Part shown: piece after piece, positions 25,079-43,167 of the stretch
How the letters are laid out: each line of letters begins with the position of its first letter
How positions within the stretch are numbered: the stretch's first letter is position 1
NCBI GenBank assembly: GCA_963695605.1
Contig: CAVOHI010000013.1
Coordinates: 9,598 to 73,597 of the forward strand
Length of the DNA stretch: 64,000 nucleotides
From: an uncultured Alphaproteobacteria bacterium
GTDB taxonomy: Bacteria > Pseudomonadota > Alphaproteobacteria > ATCC43930 > CGMCC-115725
Reading direction: 5' to 3'
The notes under the pieces: generated by a model
The model's database searches: none
The model's input: the letters and a program-made list of their open reading frames with translations, nothing else
What the model was told of the DNA's origin: nothing
Position numbers and translations under genes: made by a program

Positions 25079-25538
25079 TCACATTCCGCCAAATCCTCCA
25101 GCTTCGGGGTCGAGAAGGTGGCGCAGCCGGGTCGCCGCGATGCGGGCAAAGCGCATTGTCAGGGCGCGGCGGCGGCTGGCATCGAGCCTCATTGTGCTGC
25201 CGTCGCCGAAGCATGACCGCGCTGAACGAATCCGCCACCATCAGGCCACATTCATCGGGGATCAGCACGCGCGGAAAGTCGTTTGGCACGGCAAAGTAAA
25301 GGCGATCCGAGAAGTCACGGTAGGCGCCCCATTTGCGGTCGGCGCGAAAATCGGCCACGGACGTTTTGATCTCGACGATCACGAGGTCGCCCGTCTTGCC
25401 GAGAGCGAGAATATCGGCGCGGCGGCCGTTGGCGAGCGGGAATTCCATCAGGCTCACGTAAGCGAGGTGCTCCAGGGTGCGGCAGACGCCGCGCGCCAGA
25501 AGGGCGGCACCGGTCGGCTGGACGACGGATGCAGTCAT
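25079..25538 (-). pseudogene. MmcB-family DNA-repair protein, one +1 frame disruption
   Basis: EFPLANGRRADILALGKTGDLVIVEIKTSVADFRADRKWGAYRDFSDRLYFAVP... The C-terminus TMRLDASRRRALTMRFARIAATRLRHLLDPEAGGFGGM is in the next frame. The shift is at about 25196-25212. Span length is 460 nt, which is 1 mod 3. Confidence 0.7.
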
Positions 25539-32679: not shown

Positions 32680-34026
32680 GTGGATATCGGCGAGAGGCGC
32701 CAAGCGAACATCCTGGTATTGGCTCCGGTTGGACGCATCGACAATCTCACGAGCACCGAGTTTCAGGAGCGGCTGCTCGCCGCCGTCAGCTCCAGCTCCG
32801 CGGACGTCGTTGTCGACTTCTCCGGGGTCGAATACATCTCGAGCGCCGGTCTGCGGGCACTGATGGCTGCCACGCGACTGAAGCCGAAGGACCGCCGGCT
32901 CGCCGTCGCCTGTCTCCATACGGTCGTGAGCGAGATCTTCGCAATCAGCCGGTTCTCGCACGTCGTGCCGGTCTTCGCCACCGTTGAGGAAGCGAGCGCC
33001 GCCTGGCAGGCCCCGCCGCGTCCCGAGGAGGCGGTTCCGCATGCCGAAACCCAACCGGCTGGACCGTTGCGTGTCCGCTTTTGGGGCACCCGCGGCTCAC
33101 TACCGGCGCCGCTGCGGGAGCGGGCGGTCCGCGCCAAGATCCGCGATGCGCTGCTCGCCGCTCGCGGGCACGTATTCGAGACCGAGCAGGCGATCGACGC
33201 CTTCATAGACAGCACGCTGCCATTTTCAGTACGCGGCACTTTCGGCGGCAATACCAGCTGTGTGGAGATCATTACCGGCGACGACGAATATGTGATCTGC
33301 GATCTCGGCACGGGCGTGCGTGAATTCGGGAACCGGGTACTTCGCAAGCACGGCCCCGGCCGCAAACACACCTTCAATATCTTTTTGTCGCACCCGCACT
33401 GGGACCATATCATGGGGTTCCCATTCTTTGCCCCCGCTTACATTCCAGGCAATCGGATTTGCATTTACGGCTGCCACGGAGTCCTGCGCGAGGCGCTGCG
33501 CACCCAGCACTCGGCTCCTTGGTTTCCCGTCGATTTTCATTCGCTTGGCTCGAGTATTGAGTTCATCACCCTGGAGTCCGGCCGCGCTTACGAAGTAGCC
33601 GGTCTTTCCGTCACCTCGATCAAACAGTTTCACACGGGAGATTCCTACGGCTATCGCTTTTCCCAAGGCGGGAAGTCGATCGTCTATTCTACCGACTGCG
33701 AGCACAAGAGCTCCCAGCTCGACGAAACCTACCCGTTCGTCGAGTTCTACCGAAACGCCGACCTGCTGATCTTCGATGCCATGTATTCGCTCGGTGACTC
33801 GGTCTCGGTCAAGGAGGATTGGGGTCATTCGAGCAATGTCGTTGCGGTCGAGCTGGCCCAGGCGGCACGCGTCCGGCGCCTCGTGCTATTTCATCACGAG
33901 CCGGCATATGACGACCGTATGCTCGAGGAGATCTTCGCCGATACCGTTCGCTTCGAGGCGATCAGCCGCCATGGCCGCGAGGTCGAGGTGATCTCGGCCT
34001 ATGACGGGCTAGAACTGGAATTGTGA
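32680..34026 (+). CDS. STAS (anti-sigma-factor-antagonist) domain fused to an MBL-fold metallo-hydrolase
   Basis: Residues 1-105 are STAS-like, with the phosphorylatable-serine motif DFSGVEYISSAGLRAL (Ser54 codon 32839-32841). From about residue 128 it is MBL fold: RFWGTRGSLP...GGNTSCVEI...DLGTG...HPHWDH (33391-33408)...DWGHSS...LFHHEP. Confidence 0.8.
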   Translation: MDIGERRQANILVLAPVGRIDNLTSTEFQERLLAAVSSSSADVVVDFSGVEYISSAGLRALMAATRLKPKDRRLAVACLHTVVSEIFAISRFSHVVPVFATVEEASAAWQAPPRPEEAVPHAETQPAGPLRVRFWGTRGSLPAPLRERAVRAKIRDALLAARGHVFETEQAIDAFIDSTLPFSVRGTFGGNTSCVEIITGDDEYVICDLGTGVREFGNRVLRKHGPGRKHTFNIFLSHPHWDHIMGFPFFAPAYIPGNRICIYGCHGVLREALRTQHSAPWFPVDFHSLGSSIEFITLESGRAYEVAGLSVTSIKQFHTGDSYGYRFSQGGKSIVYSTDCEHKSSQLDETYPFVEFYRNADLLIFDAMYSLGDSVSVKEDWGHSSNVVAVELAQAARVRRLVLFHHEPAYDDRMLEEIFADTVRFEAISRHGREVEVISAYDGLELEL

Positions 34027-36133
34027 CGCGCGGTCCTGCGGTGAGCCGAGGCATCGCTCTGCTGCGCGGTCCGGGTCGGGCGGGCGCGCTCGCGCTGGTC
34101 GCGGGCGCCTTAGTCCTGCGCATCATCGACCCCGGCGTCATCACCGAATTGCGCGTGCGCAGCTTCGACTTGGTAGAACGAGTGTGGCCGCGCGCAGCGG
34201 ATTCTGCACGAGTGGCGATTATAGACATCGACGAGAAGAGCCTCGCACGACTACGGGCAGTGGCCGTGGTCGCGGCACAAGGTGGCCGAACTCCTCCGCC
34301 GCATCGCTCAAGGGAAGCCGCGCGTCGTCGGCATTGACATTCTTTTCGCCGACCGAGATCGGCTTTCGCCCGACGAGATCGCGCGAGAACTGCCGGGCCT
34401 GCCTCCGGCTTTGGCCGACGCGTTGGCCCAGCTGCCACCGAGCGACCGCGACCTCGCCGAAGCAATTGCAGCGGTCCCGACGGTGCTTTCGTTCGCCCCC
34501 AGCCATGAGGAGATGGCGCGAAATTCAGCTCCGCTCCGCCTCGCCCCCATCCGCCAGGCCGGAGACGATCCGACGCCGTTTTTGAAGAGCTACAAATCCC
34601 TGGTGCAAAGCCAGCCCGATCTGCGCGCCGCTGCGTTGGCCGCCGGGAGCGACGGAGTCGAGCCGGATCCCGACGGCGTCGTCCGACGACTCGCTCTTGC
34701 TGTGACCTATAAACAGACGATCGTCCCAAGTTTTGCGGTCGAGGTCGTGCGTGTCGGCGGCGGCGAGCGCTCGATCGTGATCGATACCGGCGCGCTCGGG
34801 ATCGAAGAGCTTCAGGATCGGCGGCACCACCATCCCGACGGACAGGCGGGGCCGTGCGATCCTCCACTTCGCGCCGTCGCAGGCACGGTACTTCTCGGCC
34901 TCGGACGTCCTTGATGCGGCGTTCGACCCAGCCGAGCTGCGGGGGCAAGTGGTATTGCTCGGGGTTGCCGGCGTCGGCATCGCCGGGCTCCGGGAAACGC
35001 CGCTTGGTCTCGTCCGCGCGGTCGACCTCCATGCCCAGCTGATCGAATCGATCCTGCTCGGCGACCTGCTTCGCCGGCCTCCATTTCTTGATTGGTTCGA
35101 GCTTGCCACGGCGCTCGTTGCTGGGCTCGTGGTCATCTGGCTGCTGCGCTACGCGAGGCCGGTGCGCGCGGTCGGTGTCGCCTTGGCGATTGCGGCCGCG
35201 CTTTTTGGCGTTGAACTCGTGCTCTTCCGTTTTGCGGATCTTCTCTTCGACAGCACCTTTCCTTCGCTGACCTTGCTCGGCGCGTTGGGTGTGATGCTTG
35301 TCGGCAACCTTCGCGCCACGCAGGGGGAACTCGTCCGCGAACGCGAGGCGAAGCAGCGGGTCGAGGGCGAGCTTGCCGCGGCGCAGGCAATCCAAATGGG
35401 CCTGTTGCCGCGGCGGTTTCCTGCGTTTCCCGATCGTCACGACATCGATGTCTACGCCCGCATCGAGCCGGCGCGAATGGTCGGGGGCGACCTCTATGAT
35501 TACCTATTGATCGGAGAAAGCAGCCGCTTGTTCTTTCTGATCGCCGACGTGGCTGGCAAGGGCATTGCGGCAGCACTGTTGATGGCGGTGACGAAGGAGG
35601 TCATCCGCGACGCCGTGCTCACGTTTGGGCCGGCGCTCGACCGCATCCTCGCGGAAGCCAACCGGAAGACTGCGGCGGCGAGCGCGGAGCTGCAAAGCGA
35701 GGGCGGCGTCTTCGTGACCGCTTTCGCCGGGATTCTCGACCTTGGCTCGGGGGAGGTCGATTTTGCCAGTGCCGGGCACGATGCGCCCTTTGTTCTCGGC
35801 GGCAAAACCGGCTTACGGCGGCTCGTCACTGAAGGCGGTCCGCCGCTCGGCGCAGTCGACGACTTCCGCTTCCCGATCGATCACGACCGGATCGAGCCGG
35901 GCGAGATCTTGCTGCTCTACACCGATGGGATCACAGAAGCGGAGAACGCCAACCATACGCTCTATTCTTCGAAACGGTTAATCATAGCGCTGGGGCAGGC
36001 GCCGGTCGCCGATGCCCAGCACGTCGTTGCGGCGATAATCGACGACGTCAGCCGTTTTGTCGGCGGCGCCGAGCAAGCGGACGATATGACTGTACTGGCG
36101 CTGCGGAGAGTGGGCGGCGGCGCTGCTACCTGA
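34023..36133 (+). pseudogene. CHASE2 sensor - 3 TM - PP2C/SpoIIE serine phosphatase (RsbU-like), two +1 frame disruptions
   Basis: The GTG overlaps the upstream TGA (GTGA). CHASE2: VAIIDIDEKSLARL, then GQWPWSRHKVAELLRRIAQGKPRVVGIDILFADRD. Then IGGTTIPTDRRGRAILHFAPSQARYFSASDVL... VVLLGVAG, TM helices, coiled coil, and PP2C motifs GGDLYDY, IADVAGKG, LYTDGITEA, DDMTVLAL. Shifts are at about 34250-34257 and 34811-34818. Confidence 0.8.
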
Positions 36134-36716
36134 CCGTAATTTCGACGCGGCGGTTGCGGGGCTCGGGGGTTTGGTCGGGGGTAGGCACGAGCGGGTCGCG
36201 CTTGCCACGGCCGGCGATCGAGATTGTCTGGCGATCGACCCCGTCGCGAACGAGCGTGTCGCGGATCGCCGCTGCGCGTTGGAGGGAAAGCGCTTGGTTG
36301 TAGGGCAGGTTGCCGACCGTGTCGGTGAAGCCGATCACCTCGATTTCGTAAACCGGTCGTTGCTTTGTATCATCGAACACAGCGCGATAGGCGAGTTTGG
36401 ATTCGGGGGTCAGCTCGGCGCTCCCGACGATGAAATAGAGACGGAAGTGATGCGGCAGGATTGGCTGCGCCGCGATCGCGCTTCGGAAAATCACGTCGAT
36501 ATTGCCGCGGCTCTCCTCGACGGGTGCCGTGCTGCCGGCGCGCGACTTTGCCGTTGCATAGGGCTGCTCGAGGGTCGTAGCCGTCTTGCCCTCCTCGACA
36601 GTGATCGCCCCCACCCCGCCGTCTTCGGCATTGGGCAGCACCACGAACAGCGCTTGCCGGGGACAACCCGCGAGGAGGACGATTGAGGCGAATGCCGGGA
36701 GTGCCCGCCGCATCAT
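36126..36716 (-). CDS. OmpA-family lipoprotein (peptidoglycan-binding OmpA C-like domain)
   Basis: Lipobox IVLLAGC. The C-terminal motif is GFTDTVGNLPYNQALSLQRAAAIRDTLV...NRRVEITV. The start overlaps the FecR stop (ATGA), and the 3' end overlaps the convergent CHASE2-PP2C gene by 8 nt. Confidence 0.8.
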   Translation of the reverse strand: MMRRALPAFASIVLLAGCPRQALFVVLPNAEDGGVGAITVEEGKTATTLEQPYATAKSRAGSTAPVEESRGNIDVIFRSAIAAQPILPHHFRLYFIVGSAELTPESKLAYRAVFDDTKQRPVYEIEVIGFTDTVGNLPYNQALSLQRAAAIRDTLVRDGVDRQTISIAGRGKRDPLVPTPDQTPEPRNRRVEITVR

Positions 36717-37228
36717 CAGTGGTCGCCATAGACTTGAACCGCAAAGGTCGTACCGCGCACCCCCAGGATTGCGGTCGGCGTCTTGATCTTCATCGCCCCA
36801 GGGGTGCTGCGCGCAATGTCGCCGGAGACGACCGCCAAGGTTCCCTTCCGCATATCGGCCAGCATTGCGCCGCGGAAGTCATTCGAATCGAACTGGAATT
36901 CGTCGAGCGCGATTTGGCTGCTCGGACCGGCGGAGAATACCGTGTTATCGATGAAGGTAATGCCGATCCCGCCGTCCGAACCTGTTTCGATGACATCCTT
37001 GACGAACAGCATATCCCCGACTTCCGCGGGCCGACGCTCCCCGGAGCGCACGACCGCCGCCTGTCCGGTTACCTTTTTGATCTGGGCAATCGGCGAAGTT
37101 TCGGCCGCCGAAGGAACTCCCGCCGTCGCAATCAGCAATGCCGCGGCCAACCACAGCACCAAGCCCAATTTCTTCCTCCCCGCCAACTTCTTCCTCCCAG
37201 GTTGAATCAATGTCTCCTTAATACACAA
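36716..37228 (-). CDS. FecR-domain periplasmic protein
   Basis: Signal peptide LVLWLAAALLIATAGVPSAA, then a FecR-type beta domain (VTGQAAVVRSGERRPAEVGDMLFVKDVIETGSDGGIGITFIDNTVFSAGPSSQIAL...ILGVRGTTFAV). The more likely start is the TTG at 37186, preceded by GGAGG. Confidence 0.75.
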   Translation of the reverse strand: MCIKETLIQPGRKKLAGRKKLGLVLWLAAALLIATAGVPSAAETSPIAQIKKVTGQAAVVRSGERRPAEVGDMLFVKDVIETGSDGGIGITFIDNTVFSAGPSSQIALDEFQFDSNDFRGAMLADMRKGTLAVVSGDIARSTPGAMKIKTPTAILGVRGTTFAVQVYGDH

Positions 37229-37266
37229 GATCGGCAGGCCGTTAGCAGCAAGATGAGCAGGCTTCG

Positions 37267-37704
37267 GTGAAGAGAGCGTCGATCACGCTATTTGCCGACC
37301 CCGCGGAGTTCAGTCGGCTTCAAGCATTTGCCGTCGAGTTCGCGCACCAATGCGGCCTGCCGGATGACGAGCGGTCGCGGCTTCTGATCATTCTCGATGA
37401 GCTCTTCACCAACGTGGTAACGCATGGTTATGGGCCGCATTCGGCGGGAGGAACCGTCGCTGTGGCGCTCGGGTGGAAGAGGGACCGCCTGCGGATCAGC
37501 TTCGTCGACGACGGCCAGCCGTTCGATCCGCTCGCGTTCCGTGGGCCCGATTTGGAGGACGCCACAGAAGAACGCGGTATTGGGGGGCTCGGCATCCATA
37601 TTGTCTGCTCGCTCGTCCACCAGGCCCGCTACCGCCGCAAGGACGACCGCAACCACCTCCATCTGATACGGCGCATCGGGGTGCCGAGCGGGGCGGGCGG
37701 TTGA
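37267..37704 (+). CDS. RsbW/SpoIIAB-like anti-sigma-type serine protein kinase (HATPase_c_2)
   Basis: 145 aa with the N-box ILDELFTNVVTHG and the G-box RGIGGLGIHIV. GTG start. Confidence 0.75.
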   Translation: MKRASITLFADPAEFSRLQAFAVEFAHQCGLPDDERSRLLIILDELFTNVVTHGYGPHSAGGTVAVALGWKRDRLRISFVDDGQPFDPLAFRGPDLEDATEERGIGGLGIHIVCSLVHQARYRRKDDRNHLHLIRRIGVPSGAGG

Positions 37705-37711
37705 GCCTGGC

Positions 37712-38486
37712 TCATCTCGCCGATGCGGCGAGCAAAATCACGATTTCTGCGACTTGCTGGAATGCGCCGAGAACATCGCCGGTATAGCCGCCGATCTGGC
37801 TTCGTGCGAGTTCGGCGGTGGCGAAAACGATCACGCCGGCGAGGCAAAGCGCTATCACTCCGCGCATTGGTCCTAATGCCGCCAAAGCTATCGCGGCGCC
37901 GATAAGCGCCGCCGCAATCGCACCGCCCGCACTAGGTGTTCCAGCCATCGCTCCGAGACCATCGGGGCGTGCCGGCGTCAGTCCCATCATCGCCGCCGGC
38001 AAAGCGGCCCGCGAGGCGGCATGCGCCGCGATAAGCGCTAGACCGCCGTGGATGACATCACCGATGCCGGCGAGCGCGGCGGCCCGCAACAGCACACTCA
38101 GAACAATCGCCAGCACGCCGTAAGTGCCCTGCCGGCTGTCCCGCAGGATCTTGAGCTTTTCTTCCCGGTCGCGCCCCCCGCAAAACCCGTCGGCGGTATC
38201 GGCGAGCCCGTCCTCGTGCAACGCTCCCGTCAACGCGATCCCTCCCAGCACCGACAACAGCGCAGCCGGCCAACTGGCCAGGCCGATCAACTGGGCCACA
38301 AGGAGAGCGAACGCCGCCGCGCCGCCGATCCCGGCGCCGACGAGCGGAAATGTCCAGCCCGAAATCGGCGAGCCGCCACTCGCCCAATCGCGGATCGACC
38401 GGCAGCCGCGTGAAGAAGGCCGTGGCCGCCAGAAACCCGGCGAAAAAACCCGCAGGATAGTGCGAAGGATCCTCTGAGCGGCTCAT
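37712..38486 (-). pseudogene. cobS: Adenosylcobinamide-GDP ribazoletransferase (cobalamin synthase), one +1 frame disruption
   Basis: FLAATAFFTRLPV...LADF, then the next frame gives GWTFPLVGAGIGGAAAFALLVAQLIGL...HEDGLADTADGF...GTYGVLAIVL. The shift is at about 38355-38365 (GGG). Confidence 0.85.
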
Positions 38487-40417: not shown

Positions 40418-42022
40418 ATGACCAGAAAACGAAATTTCGGCAGCGCCGCGGCGATTGGGGGCTTGACCGCGTCGATCGCGCTGCTGATGGGATTACCGGC
40501 GGCGAGCGCCGATGAACTGGCGGATCTTCGCGCCAATCAGGAGCTGCTGCAGCGCCGCATCGAGCAGCTGGCTCAGGCCGCGCAAGGACGCCCGGGCGTC
40601 CCAGGGGCTTACGGCGCGGAGGCACACCCAGGTGAAATGGCCACCCAAGGCAGCTTTCCGCGCTCGTTTCTGATCCCGGGGACGGATACCTCGATCCGCG
40701 TGGGCGGGTTTATCGACGAGACCCTCGATTACTACTTCGTCGGCGCGCAGCCGAACGGCAACCAGACTACAACCATCGGGGTCACCGGCCAGTTGGAATC
40801 GGCGCCACTCAACACGCACGCTTTTACAAGTGTTCCGGGCTTCCCGACCCCCGGAAATCTCGTGCCGCAGAGCACGGCTAGCTCGCGCGGCAACGGAAAC
40901 TTCTCGCAGAGCCCCCGGGAAACGCGCCTCAACGTTGAGACGCGCACACCGACTGCATGGGGCGAGTCGCGGACTTTCATTGAATTCGACTTTGCGGGCA
41001 GCGGCTCCTTCAGTTCAAATAACCTGACCACGGTGTCGGATAGCTTGATCCCGCGTTTGCGGTATGCCTACGGCACGCTCGGTGGTTTCCTCGCCGGGCA
41101 GGCCAACTCGAATTTCTCCGATCCTGACGCCAATCCGGAGACGCTCGATTTCGGCGGCCCTGCCGGCTTCGCGGGCGTGACCCGCATCCCTCAGGTTCGA
41201 TACACTCTTAATGGTCCATGGGGCAGCGCCTGGTCGGTCTCGGCCGAAACCCCCGAGACAGATATCGTCACACCGGCCGGCAACGTTAAAACGGACACGA
41301 ACCTCGGGCAGAACCCGGTGACCAGCCCGACGACAACGGGCTGCGTCGCCAACGGAATCACGATCAGCGCCGACCGCCGGGTGTGCCTTAGCCTTCAATC
41401 CCACCAAGTCCTCGGCGCCCGACCTCACCTTCGCTTCCTATTGGTCAGCAGCCTTGGGGCCACGTCGATTTCCGCGGCCTGGTCCGTCCGACACTGACAC
41501 TCAACGACGGCAAATTCGTCGACAGGACATTCGTCGGTGGCGGCGGCGGCGTTTCCGGCGACGTCAAACCGGGTTGGTTTGGTTGGGAAAAGGACGACTT
41601 TCAGTTCCAATTCACGGTTGGCAACGGCATTGGGCGGTATATCAACGAGAGCAACAACGCGGCACTGGCGACCAACTTCCTCTCGTCTCCGGCCACCGCC
41701 GCCGCTGCAGCAAGCATCCTAGTCAGGCCGATATTCGAATACGGCTATGCCCTCGGCTACCAGCACTTCTGGCTGCCCAATTTGCGATCCACCGCGGTTT
41801 ACGGTTACGCCTATACTGGTTATCCAACGAACGCTGATCGGGCCGACGCAGGGGGTCGTCTCGAACAGGGTGCTGCAGACTGCCCATATCAACTTGATCT
41901 GGAGCCCGGTCGCGTTCATCGATGCCGGCGTCGAATATTTTTGGGGGCAACGCCAGACCGCCTCTAATAACATCAAGGGCGATGAGCAAACCTTGATCGG
42001 CAAGTTCCGCGTCAAGTTCTAG
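40418..42022 (+). pseudogene. Outer-membrane porin with N-terminal coiled coil (DcaP-like), three +1 frame disruptions
   Basis: Signal peptide plus coiled coil (ADELADLRANQELLQRRIEQLAQ), then beta-barrel-like sequence. The protein continues through all three frames: ...NGITISAD, then AGCALAFNPTKSSAPDLTFASYWS, then QPWGHVDFRGLVRPTLTLNDGKFVD...YGYAYTGYPTNA, then LIGPTQGVVSNRVLQTAHINLIWSPVAFIDAGVEYFWGQRQ...LIGKFRVKF. Shifts are at about 41371-41380, 41443-41452 and 41828-41835. Confidence 0.7.
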
Positions 42023-42077: not shown

Positions 42078-42097
42078 TCACTCCGCGGAGCCTGATT

Positions 42098-43079
42098 TCA
42101 TGCGGTCACAGACCCGCCGCGACCTCCCGCAAGCACATTCCGCAGCCAGGCGACGCCACGGTCCTCGCCATGATCGCGGTGCCATAATGCCATGATGTCG
42201 AAGGGCGGCGACGTATAGGGAGGTTCGAACAGCTTGAGACGATATCCGTTGGCGAAGGCGGCCGCGAGACGGCGCGGCAGCGGCGCCGCCATGTCGGACT
42301 GGCTGACCACTGCGAGCGGCGGCAGGGAAATGCGGCGTCGTCAGGCCGACCACGCGGCGCAATCCGCGCGCCGCCAGCGCGCCTTGCAGCAACCCGACTT
42401 CGCTGCGGGTGACCAGCCGTTCGAGGCCATGGTCGCTGACATAGCCGTTGATCGCGTGCTCGTCCTCGCCGGTTGCGGAGATGATCAGATGCGACAGTGA
42501 GGCGAGACGTTCGAGGGTCAGTTCGCCGTCGGCCGCCGGGTGGTCGGCGCTCAGTACCCAGACCCGGGTCTCCTGAAACAAGGTTTCACAGACAAAGGGC
42601 TCGGGCACTCGTCTAAAGCTGCCGATCGCGAGATCGATGCGACCTGCGAGCAGCGCCTCGGTCACCCCCATGTTGCTCGGCCGGATGCGGAGTTCGGCGT
42701 TTGGCGCCAGAGTTCGGACCCGGGCAATAAAGCCCGGCACCAGCACCGTGCCGACATACTCGCCGCAGGCGATCGTGAAACGCCGCTCTGTCTGCTCGGG
42801 CACGAATTCGGTCGGCCCCAGCGCCAGCTGGAGCTGCAGCAGCCCCTCGCGGAGCCGCGGCGCGATTTCGGCGGCCCGCGGGGTCGGCCGCATGCCATCC
42901 GCCACCCGCACGAACAGTTCATCGTGGAGCACATAGCGCAGCCGGTTCAGCGCATGGCTGATCGCCGACTGGCTCAGCCCGAGCCGCTCTCCGGCGCGCG
43001 TGACGCTGCGTTCCTCGATCAGCGTGTCGAAGACCCGCAGCAGGTTCAGATCGAGTGTGTGGAAATGCAGGTCATTCAT
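42098..43079 (-). pseudogene. LysR-family transcriptional regulator, one +1 frame disruption
   Basis: MNDLHFHTLDLNLLRVFDTLIEERSVTRAGERLGLSQSAISHALNRLR (HTH). The C-terminus LPPLAVVSQSDMAAPLPRRLAAAFANGYRLKLFEPPY...ALWHRDHGEDRGVAWLR is in the next frame. The shift is at about 42323-42331. Confidence 0.85.
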
Positions 43080-43167
43080 GCGTGCGATGCACAATTATCA
43101 TTCGCGTGCAAAGGGCGACTTGGGGCAACCTGCTGTTGAGATCAACTAAGGATCTGGAGACGCTGCT

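Follow-up and report, generated by a model that had tools for sequence, protein, structure and literature searches.

A conserved bacterial cassette that pairs a STAS phospho-switch with a putative metallo-β-lactamase-fold phosphodiesterase

Partner-switching modules are known from textbooks as regulators of sigma factors. A 64 kb stretch of DNA from an uncultured alphaproteobacterium (contig CAVOHI010000013.1 of assembly GCA_963695605.1; the whole stretch is referred to below as the window) carries a cassette with the parts of such a module, together with a putative hydrolase of the metallo-β-lactamase (MBL) fold. As in RsbU-RsbV-RsbW and SpoIIE-SpoIIAA-SpoIIAB, the parts are a STAS domain whose DS(A/S)GL-type motif contains a phosphorylatable serine, a HATPase_c_2-type GHKL serine kinase and a phosphatase of the PP2C/SpoIIE kind. 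The cassette differs from these systems in that it has no linked sigma factor, a periplasmic CHASE2 domain provides the predicted input, and an MBL protein is tied to the STAS domain. Against the RsbU/V/W-type equivalogs of NCBIfam, the cassette proteins all score far below the cut-offs.

Two described systems are closer in their output. In the All4160/HenR/Alr3423 system of Anabaena PCC 7120, a STAS-glycosyltransferase is controlled via a PP2C phosphatase and a kinase, and the non-phosphorylated form is active (PMC13555669). All4160 resembles the protein in the window in that an enzyme is fused to STAS and controlled by STAS phosphorylation, although in the cassette this control is predicted. 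The cassette differs in that its enzyme is an MBL hydrolase, its parts form one conserved unit with an envelope sensor, and the fusion is optional. SiaABCD of Pseudomonas aeruginosa consists of the PP2C phosphatase SiaA, the kinase SiaB, the STAS-like protein SiaC and the diguanylate cyclase SiaD (PMC9239204, PMC8457831). It too is similar to a partner switch, and its operon includes the output, an enzyme of nucleotide second-messenger metabolism in place of a sigma factor. However, the GGDEF domain of SiaD makes c-di-GMP, whereas the partner in the cassette is an MBL-fold hydrolase with CHASE2, FecR and OmpA inputs.

The input side also has described relatives. The BiofilmReg operon of Burkholderia encodes a LysM-FecR protein and a CHASE2 histidine kinase (PMC5192318), and a gene cluster of Campylobacterota encodes a CHASE2 adenylate cyclase, a FecR protein and a cAMP phosphodiesterase (PMC9239204). 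As in these pairs, the cassette places a membrane CHASE2 sensor beside an exported FecR protein. The peptidoglycan-binding element, which is LysM in Burkholderia, is an OmpA-like lipoprotein in the cassette. The transmitter, a histidine kinase or an adenylate cyclase in those pairs, is in the cassette a PP2C phosphatase directed to a STAS switch. An initial annotation of this DNA, made from the sequence alone, was aware of no characterized STAS-MBL switch. Searches of the full-text literature likewise found no description of the STAS-MBL pair or of the cassette, but SiaABCD and All4160 already provide examples of an enzyme as the output in place of a sigma factor. Any newness lies in the MBL partner and the CHASE2/FecR/OmpA input; a STAS phospho-switch acting on an enzyme is not new.

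On balance, comparison of the locus with its relatives makes it probable, though by no means certain, that the STAS phospho-switch acts directly on the MBL phosphodiesterase and not on a sigma factor. The five adjacent genes described initially were recovered from the list of open reading frames (ORFs) and by Pfam profile searches, which provided the domain calls on the window proteins; curated models were judged by the NCBIfam cut-offs. The genes, and two sites within the first of them, are as follows (TM, transmembrane).

32680–34026, + strand: STAS-MBL fusion gene, 448 aa (Pfam STAS and Lactamase_B_2; AlphaFold2 model)
32842–32844, + strand: codon of Ser55, the predicted phospho-acceptor in Y-I-S54-S55-A-G-L (alignment to TM1442 and homologues)
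33391–33408, + strand: HxHxDH metal-binding motif, HPHWDH, comprising H238, H240, D242 and H243 (sequence and 82-sequence alignment)
34023–36133, + strand: CHASE2-TM-PP2C/SpoIIE phosphatase gene, the start of which overlaps the STAS-MBL stop (Pfam)
36126–36716, − strand: OmpA-like peptidoglycan-binding lipoprotein, 196 aa, lipobox LAGC (Pfam OmpA, E 2.5e-17)
36716–37228, − strand: FecR-domain exported protein with an N-terminal signal-like segment (Pfam FecR, E 1e-7)
37267–37704, + strand: RsbW/SpoIIAB-type GHKL serine kinase, 145 aa (Pfam HATPase_c_2, E 7e-22)

The STAS-MBL protein comprises a STAS region at residues 1–105 (Pfam match 7–105, E 2e-15), a disordered Pro/Ala-rich linker at approximately 106–129 and an MBL phosphodiesterase-type domain at 130–448 (Lactamase_B_2 match 230–406, E 6e-19). 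In the AlphaFold2 model of the 448 aa protein, the predicted local distance difference test (pLDDT) score is 91 and the predicted template modelling (pTM) score is 0.87, with a low-confidence, disordered linker at 110–127. The source databases label the fused protein 'anti-sigma factor antagonist', and nothing more. The best 120 homologues listed from a metagenome protein collection are all fused STAS-MBL proteins, with 74–95% identity.

Relatives were sought by a pattern scan of a collection with one genome per species; at least 600 stretches matched, and at least 594 loci encode a relative. The best 80 of these, with four loci from earlier searching, make up the 84 loci that were mapped. In 67 of the 84, STAS (~120 aa) and MBL (~320 aa) are encoded by two translationally coupled genes, with an overlap of 4–7 nt or a gap of <45 nt, and Pfam confirmed the split genes in L016. 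A neighbour-joining tree built on the MBL domain divides the fused form among three separate clades (the clade of the window, L026 with L031, and L043 with L050), each nested among split lineages. The covalent fusion to the hydrolase, which the initial annotation saw as the apparent output of the module, is real in the window but does not define the system, and the window carries a lineage-specific fusion within an older six-gene cassette.

The MBL domain (~130–448) constitutes a family of its own, with 1022 representatives at E ≤1e-30 in an exhaustive profile-free search of 1.84 billion representatives. Among the best 150 of the family, 13 are STAS-MBL proteins, five are MBL-STAS, in 36 MBL-STAS is extended by a long C-terminal region, and 76 consist of full-length MBL alone; STAS is present in the same chain as MBL in 54 of the 150. 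The long forms, which come from Anaerolineae and Ardenticatenales, are MBL-STAS-Pkinase proteins with or without AAA_16 and TPR. In Chloroflexota the reverse order, MBL-STAS, occurs alone or is often followed by a Hanks-type kinase. Fusion in both orders, in distant phyla, and in three clades of the same order provides strong gene-fusion ('Rosetta-stone') evidence that STAS and MBL work together.

Such a partnership could also arise through competition for the kinase. All three canonical parts of a partner switch are present, and MBL is a separate protein in most genomes and hence could be sequestered: the RsbW-like kinase might bind and inhibit the enzyme until dephosphorylated STAS competes for the kinase and frees it. 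This is improbable, as repeated fusion of STAS and MBL in both orders is ill-suited to competitors for a single kinase surface, and cassettes without a linked kinase exist. In Chloroflexota, moreover, a fused Hanks kinase takes the place of the GHKL kinase, which argues against sequestration. No sequestering role is known for a fused Hanks kinase, which favours phospho-STAS acting on MBL over release from an RsbW-type kinase. Around the MBL-STAS and MBL-STAS-kinase genes of Chloroflexota, neither a PP2C nor an RsbW gene was found, and no partner recurred consistently.

The MBL domain has the residues expected of an active enzyme of this fold. The HPHWDH motif noted initially is found at H238–H243, and H238, H240, D242, H243, H318, D339, H383, H405 and Asp208 are invariant among 82 diverse family members with a mean column identity of 35%. 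All eight metal ligands, the loss of which in a proper alignment would have told against a functional hydrolase, are thus kept in 82 of 82 sequences. This invariance, together with that of Asp208, indicates that selection acts on catalysis. The full ligand set, the pLDDT of 91 and matches to MBL structures at E values down to 1.7e-14 are those of an MBL-fold binuclear metallo-hydrolase.

Comparison of the predicted MBL structure with solved ones, which the initial annotation had proposed, gave RNase Z and YhfI-type cyclic-nucleotide phosphodiesterases as the nearest folds. Foldseek against the PDB placed RNase Z first, followed by YhfI, BA1088, the PhnP family, ELAC1, yeast PDE1 and Apyc1, with identities of 13–20%. 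In a profile search the top matches were BA1088, RNase BN/ZiPD and YhfI, while a PDB sequence search with the single 448 aa protein gave weak RNase Z and STAS matches only. The fold and profile neighbours of the domain are all phosphodiesterases. The atypical class II enzymes YhfI, BA1088, Apyc1 and Rv1339 (PF12706) and RNase Z share with it the fold and the complete HxHxDH/H/D/H/H ligands; unlike the cassette protein, they are not linked to STAS. A helical insertion of about 45 residues (~143–186), which lies between the first two MBL strands of the AlphaFold2 model, is particular to the MBL family of the cassette.

RNase Z as the best single structural match, and the database name 'anti-sigma factor antagonist', would be in keeping with an ordinary RsbU/V/W module in which the sigma factor is encoded elsewhere, since sigma factors can sit far from their regulators, and in which the MBL protein is a passenger with a housekeeping role such as RNA processing. 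Of the readings considered here this appears the least probable. A passenger would not be expected to keep its translational coupling to the STAS gene in several phyla, to fuse with it at least three times and to fuse in the reverse order in another phylum, and the protein falls far short of the RNase Z equivalog cut-off.

The initial annotation named Ser54 as the phosphorylated residue. The STAS motif does align with the phospho-acceptor position, and a Ser or Thr is kept there in distant relatives, but the residue concerned is Ser55 and not Ser54. In a HMMER alignment, Ser55 pairs with Ser59 in the DSAGL motif of the anti-sigma antagonist TM1442. Position 55 is Ser or Thr in nine of nine divergent fused homologues, and position 54 is variable. 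The corresponding residue of SpoIIAA is Ser58. A STAS-MBL paralogue with 45% identity (P0125) has a Thr as phospho-acceptor; its HxHxDH motif has decayed to D-L-R-W-D-H, and further ligand positions are altered. On this evidence P0125 may have lost catalysis and serve in regulation only.

A cassette of STAS, MBL, CHASE2-PP2C, OmpA (−), FecR (−) and RsbW-like kinase (+) genes, almost everywhere in the same order and on the same strands, is present in Alpha-, Beta- and Gammaproteobacteria, Binatia and Rokuibacteriota. Among the best 80 of the at least 594 relatives, the alphaproteobacterial carriers are Stellaceae bins, Roseospira, Rhodospira and Novosphingobium; those of the Burkholderiales and the Dechloromonas group are Duganella, Rugamonas, Pseudoduganella, Dechloromonas and Rhodoferax; and further carriers include gammaproteobacterial bins, Candidatus Binatus and Rokuibacteriota. 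The five families were placed on the loci by iterated profile searches, and components were counted in the 64 related loci whose downstream sequence extends over at least 4.5 kb. The CHASE2-PP2C gene directly follows the MBL gene in 62 of the 64, OmpA is present in 57, FecR also in 57 and always beside the OmpA gene, and the RsbW-like kinase in 51. The gene set is thus strongly conserved as a neighbourhood, without which the proposed module would have had little standing.

Beyond these genes, clustering of the flanking ORFs at the 84 loci revealed no additional family common across lineages. The largest flank cluster, of dCache-PAS-GGDEF proteins, is represented at 16 of the 84 loci. As described initially, no sigma factor is encoded in the cassette: a phmmer search identified one true extracytoplasmic function (ECF) sigma factor, at a single Duganella locus (one of 84), and none in the 64 kb window. 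A Jackhmmer search with RpoE and FliA seeds gave no match; the sensitivity of these sigma-factor searches was modest. Within the mapped flanks, therefore, the module is not encoded with a sigma factor or any other kinase-sequestered target. With no further conserved family in the flanks and a sigma factor near one locus only, the cassette appears self-contained. Direct control of MBL by STAS is favoured because MBL is the only candidate target in the cassette, and the fusions argue for contact between the two.

In RsbR (globin-STAS) and YtvA (LOV-STAS), the N-terminal partner domain of STAS is the input. The MBL domain could likewise be an input domain that detects or turns over a small molecule of the cytoplasm and alters the engagement of STAS with the kinase, the real output being a target of the RsbW-like kinase, or of the fused Hanks kinase/STAND-like ATPase, that is encoded elsewhere. 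The MBL-STAS and MBL-STAS-Pkinase-AAA_16-TPR orders fit an input role equally well, reading naturally as sensor, STAS and kinase, and a cassette of this kind would combine envelope signals, through CHASE2, with cytoplasmic ones. This is the main alternative, but an unlikely one. Flank clustering found no conserved downstream target beside the cassette. By contrast, the genes sigB, spoIIAC and hsbD are encoded beside their switches. SiaD, too, is described as belonging to the SiaABCD pathway (PMC9239204). In addition, the kinase is the least conserved component (51 of 64 loci), whereas MBL and the phosphatase are nearly universal, and the strict invariance of the catalytic residues suits an effector enzyme better than a ligand sensor.

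If STAS does control the MBL enzyme directly, signalling could proceed as follows. The CHASE2 domain of the membrane phosphatase would sense an envelope cue in the periplasm, together with the FecR protein and the peptidoglycan-anchored OmpA-like lipoprotein; that the cue is derived from the envelope is a reasonable inference. The cue would determine how active the cytoplasmic PP2C domain is. This domain would remove phosphate from Ser55, and the RsbW-like kinase would re-phosphorylate this residue. The phosphorylation state of STAS would then directly control the MBL enzyme, in trans in the common split form and in cis in the fused form found in the lineage of the window. By analogy with All4160 (PMC13555669), activity is probably a property of the unphosphorylated form. 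The active phosphorylation state, the substrate and the direction in which the signal flows are all three inferred.

The proposed sensor is encoded by a gene which, in the window, is interrupted. Its start and the STAS-MBL stop share the GTGA overlap at 34023–34026 that was reported initially and is present in the sequence. The SpoIIE/PP2C match is strong (E 8e-44) and the Asp-containing PP2C motifs are present, while the action of the domain on STAS is predicted; the CHASE2 matches span three overlapping ORF fragments. When the gene is repaired, a hydropathy scan places a TM segment at residues ~20–42, followed by CHASE2, TM segments at ~353–409 and PP2C. The CHASE2 sensor with three TM helices described initially is borne out as regards the TM segments after CHASE2, but there is one N-terminal TM segment besides. 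CHASE2 lies between TM segments and the gene of an exported FecR protein is adjacent, as in other CHASE2/FecR accessory pairs.

Two frame breaks in this gene had been noted, and both are real in the sequence, each being one inserted base, near 34251 and at 34807. The inserted bases are seen in a DNA alignment with three close relatives in which the phosphatase gene is intact (L005–L007), and removal of one base at each site restores a 702 aa ORF. With an intact 698 aa orthologue (L003), tblastn covers the whole gene as the frame passes from 1 to 2 to 3, with 48–67% identity on both sides of the breaks. Within about 18 kb there are no fewer than ten other single-base indels that are specific to the window and are nearly all insertions (at 25207, 25594, 37205, 38362, 38561, 41370, 41448, 41830, 42134 and 42318); these were detected by alignment of the window DNA to four related loci and are seen against most or all of them. 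Genes of an ABC transporter, cobS, a porin and a LysR regulator are broken by them. The closest DNA to the window is that of L006, an uncultured alphaproteobacterial bin (~89% over 21 kb). The nearest relatives, L001 and L002, are long-read metagenome bins.

A reading frame interrupted by two +1 insertions would be expected if the module were dead in the source genome, with the phosphatase reduced to a pseudogene by two real frameshifts. This is very unlikely: the neighbouring genes carry at least ten more single-base indels, L001 and L002 have different breaks of their own in the phosphatase gene, and the sequence on either side of each break retains 48–67% identity to the intact orthologue over its full length. 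Because similar insertions occur throughout the window, in a pattern that resembles a systematic error signature, the breaks are probably sequence errors and not decay of the module, and a phosphatase pseudogene was largely rejected.

The substrate of the MBL enzyme most likely belongs to the phosphodiesters, among which a cyclic nucleotide second messenger is more probable than RNA, as judged from the fold and profile neighbours of the enzyme. For YhfI the preferred substrates are cAMP and cGMP, and cyclic mononucleotides are broken down by Apyc1 (PMC9117128); Rv1339, of the PF12706 type, acts as a phosphodiesterase on cAMP (PMC9293780). Two specific identities were tried and rejected. The RNase Z model TIGR02651 scored 71 bits against a cut-off of 293, with a Foldseek identity to RNase Z of 15–18%, and the cyclic-nucleotide phosphodiesterase model NF041851 (YhfI/Apyc1 type) scored 52 bits against a cut-off of 400. 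With scores far under both curated thresholds, the protein belongs to neither group. The insertion of the cassette family, between strands 1 and 2, is placed differently from the flexible arm of RNase Z. A PF23023 (Anti-Pycsar_Apyc1) label, precomputed for the protein and its relatives, was not reproduced by a Pfam rescan at E values up to 10, and is therefore taken as a hint only.

Some neighbouring genes of distant relatives encode domains connected with nucleotide signalling. In one lineage (L092 and L093, 4519–7317), a cNMP_binding-HisKA-HATPase_c histidine kinase gene lies directly upstream of a reverse-order MBL-STAS gene. A stand-alone MBL relative with 37% identity on a Leptospira interrogans plasmid (L085, 6001–7414) adjoins a PilZ-domain gene, and another with 31% identity on a Magnetococcus plasmid (L086, 5077–6888) adjoins an HDOD-domain gene; neither has a neighbouring STAS gene. 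The plasmid collection contained distant stand-alone MBL relatives only, those of rhizobia having ~30% identity and unrelated surroundings.

Besides the sensor-like domain orders of the Chloroflexota proteins, several points count against direct STAS control of a cyclic-nucleotide phosphodiesterase. The MBL-STAS family is known from sequence and predicted structure alone, and an interface between the two domains is suggested by a single model value, the pTM of 0.87. The kinase gene is absent from about 20% of cassettes, including L003, L008, L009 and L011 of the fused clade, and phosphorylation may therefore come from elsewhere or be dispensable. In the window itself, the phosphatase gene is frame-broken. 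The substrate class is weakly constrained by the low RNase Z and NF041851 scores and the 13–20% identity to solved structures, and the hints of a cyclic nucleotide given by the cNMP-binding histidine kinase, PilZ and HDOD neighbours are anecdotal.

Taken as a whole, the cassette may represent a widespread pathway in which a CHASE2/FecR/OmpA sensor sets STAS phosphorylation, STAS controls a dedicated family of MBL phosphodiesterases, and these act on a cytoplasmic phosphodiester signal, likeliest a cyclic nucleotide and possibly RNA; this full sequence of steps is put forward tentatively, at somewhat less than an even chance. If correct, STAS would be a general phospho-regulatory module for the MBL family of the cassette, in a pairing old enough for repeated fusion in Proteobacteria and for fusion in the reverse order, with eukaryote-like kinases and STAND-type ATPases, in Chloroflexota. 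Partner switches would gain MBL phosphodiesterases as a new class of output, and CHASE2 with its FecR and OmpA-like partners as a new input. With at least 594 loci that encode a relative, in several phyla, the system is not a curiosity of one genome, and its carriers include cultured, tractable bacteria (Duganella, Rugamonas, Dechloromonas, Novosphingobium and Roseospira). It could provide a handle on what CHASE2/FecR pairs detect and on how STAS phosphorylation regulates catalysis. Should the substrate be a cyclic nucleotide, many soil and freshwater bacteria would possess a post-translationally switched second-messenger phosphodiesterase.

The remaining genes of the cassette lie downstream of the phosphatase gene. 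The OmpA gene is convergent with it, and their ends overlap by 8 nt; NCBIfam models of OmpA-type lipoproteins match the product, all below cut-off. Where the FecR ORF has its 5' end is uncertain, given the window-specific 1 nt insertion at ~37205. The kinase gene is divergent from the FecR gene, and its translation contains an N box (ELFTNVVTH), a G1 box (DDGQPF) and a G2 box (GIGGLG); RsbA/RsbW-type models of NCBIfam match it below their equivalog cut-offs. Rfam searches found no RNA families in the window, and a scan for promoters and terminators gave no signal exceeding the shuffled background. With the PADLOC defence models, four of the five cassette proteins had no match; the OmpA domain alone matched a model, that of the MotB-like ZorB.

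Window-specific insertions also coincide with irregularities in the genes beyond the cassette. The cobS gene (cobalamin-5-phosphate synthase; 37712–38486, − strand) is split into ORFs 37712–38299 and 38058–38486 by the insertion at ~38362, and in L001 cobS is intact (254 aa). A porin-like gene (40418–42022, + strand) is divided into at least two ORFs (40418–41497 and 41747–42022), and a LysR-type regulator (42078–43094, − strand) has an aberrant C-terminal part.

Variations of the cassette occur at several loci. In L003 (1–14000), which is 74% identical, the cassette lies just downstream of a phage-type integrase and insertion sequence (IS) fragments; there is no kinase gene, and a histidine phosphatase gene and cobS directly follow FecR. 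The OmpA-FecR pair is duplicated in L040 (3389–5705), and the kinase/FecR/OmpA block is inverted in L029 (14105–15652). In L043 and L066 the kinase gene follows the phosphatase gene and OmpA and FecR are absent; they are also absent from L064, where the kinase gene precedes a phosphatase gene that lacks CHASE2. In L036 the kinase gene follows an inverted STAS gene, and the phosphatase gene was not found. Diguanylate cyclase genes of the dCache-HAMP-PAS-GGDEF type lie within 6 kb of the cassette at 16 of the 84 loci (e.g. L083, 15634–17646), probably at the background frequency of these genomes. Among the Chloroflexota, MBL-STAS-kinase genes (L090, 4748–10802; L096, 2191–3414; L097, 2315–3838) adjoin cell-envelope genes, namely those for a PDZ protein, Amidase_2, AnmK (anhydro-MurNAc kinase) and LytR_cpsA_psr.

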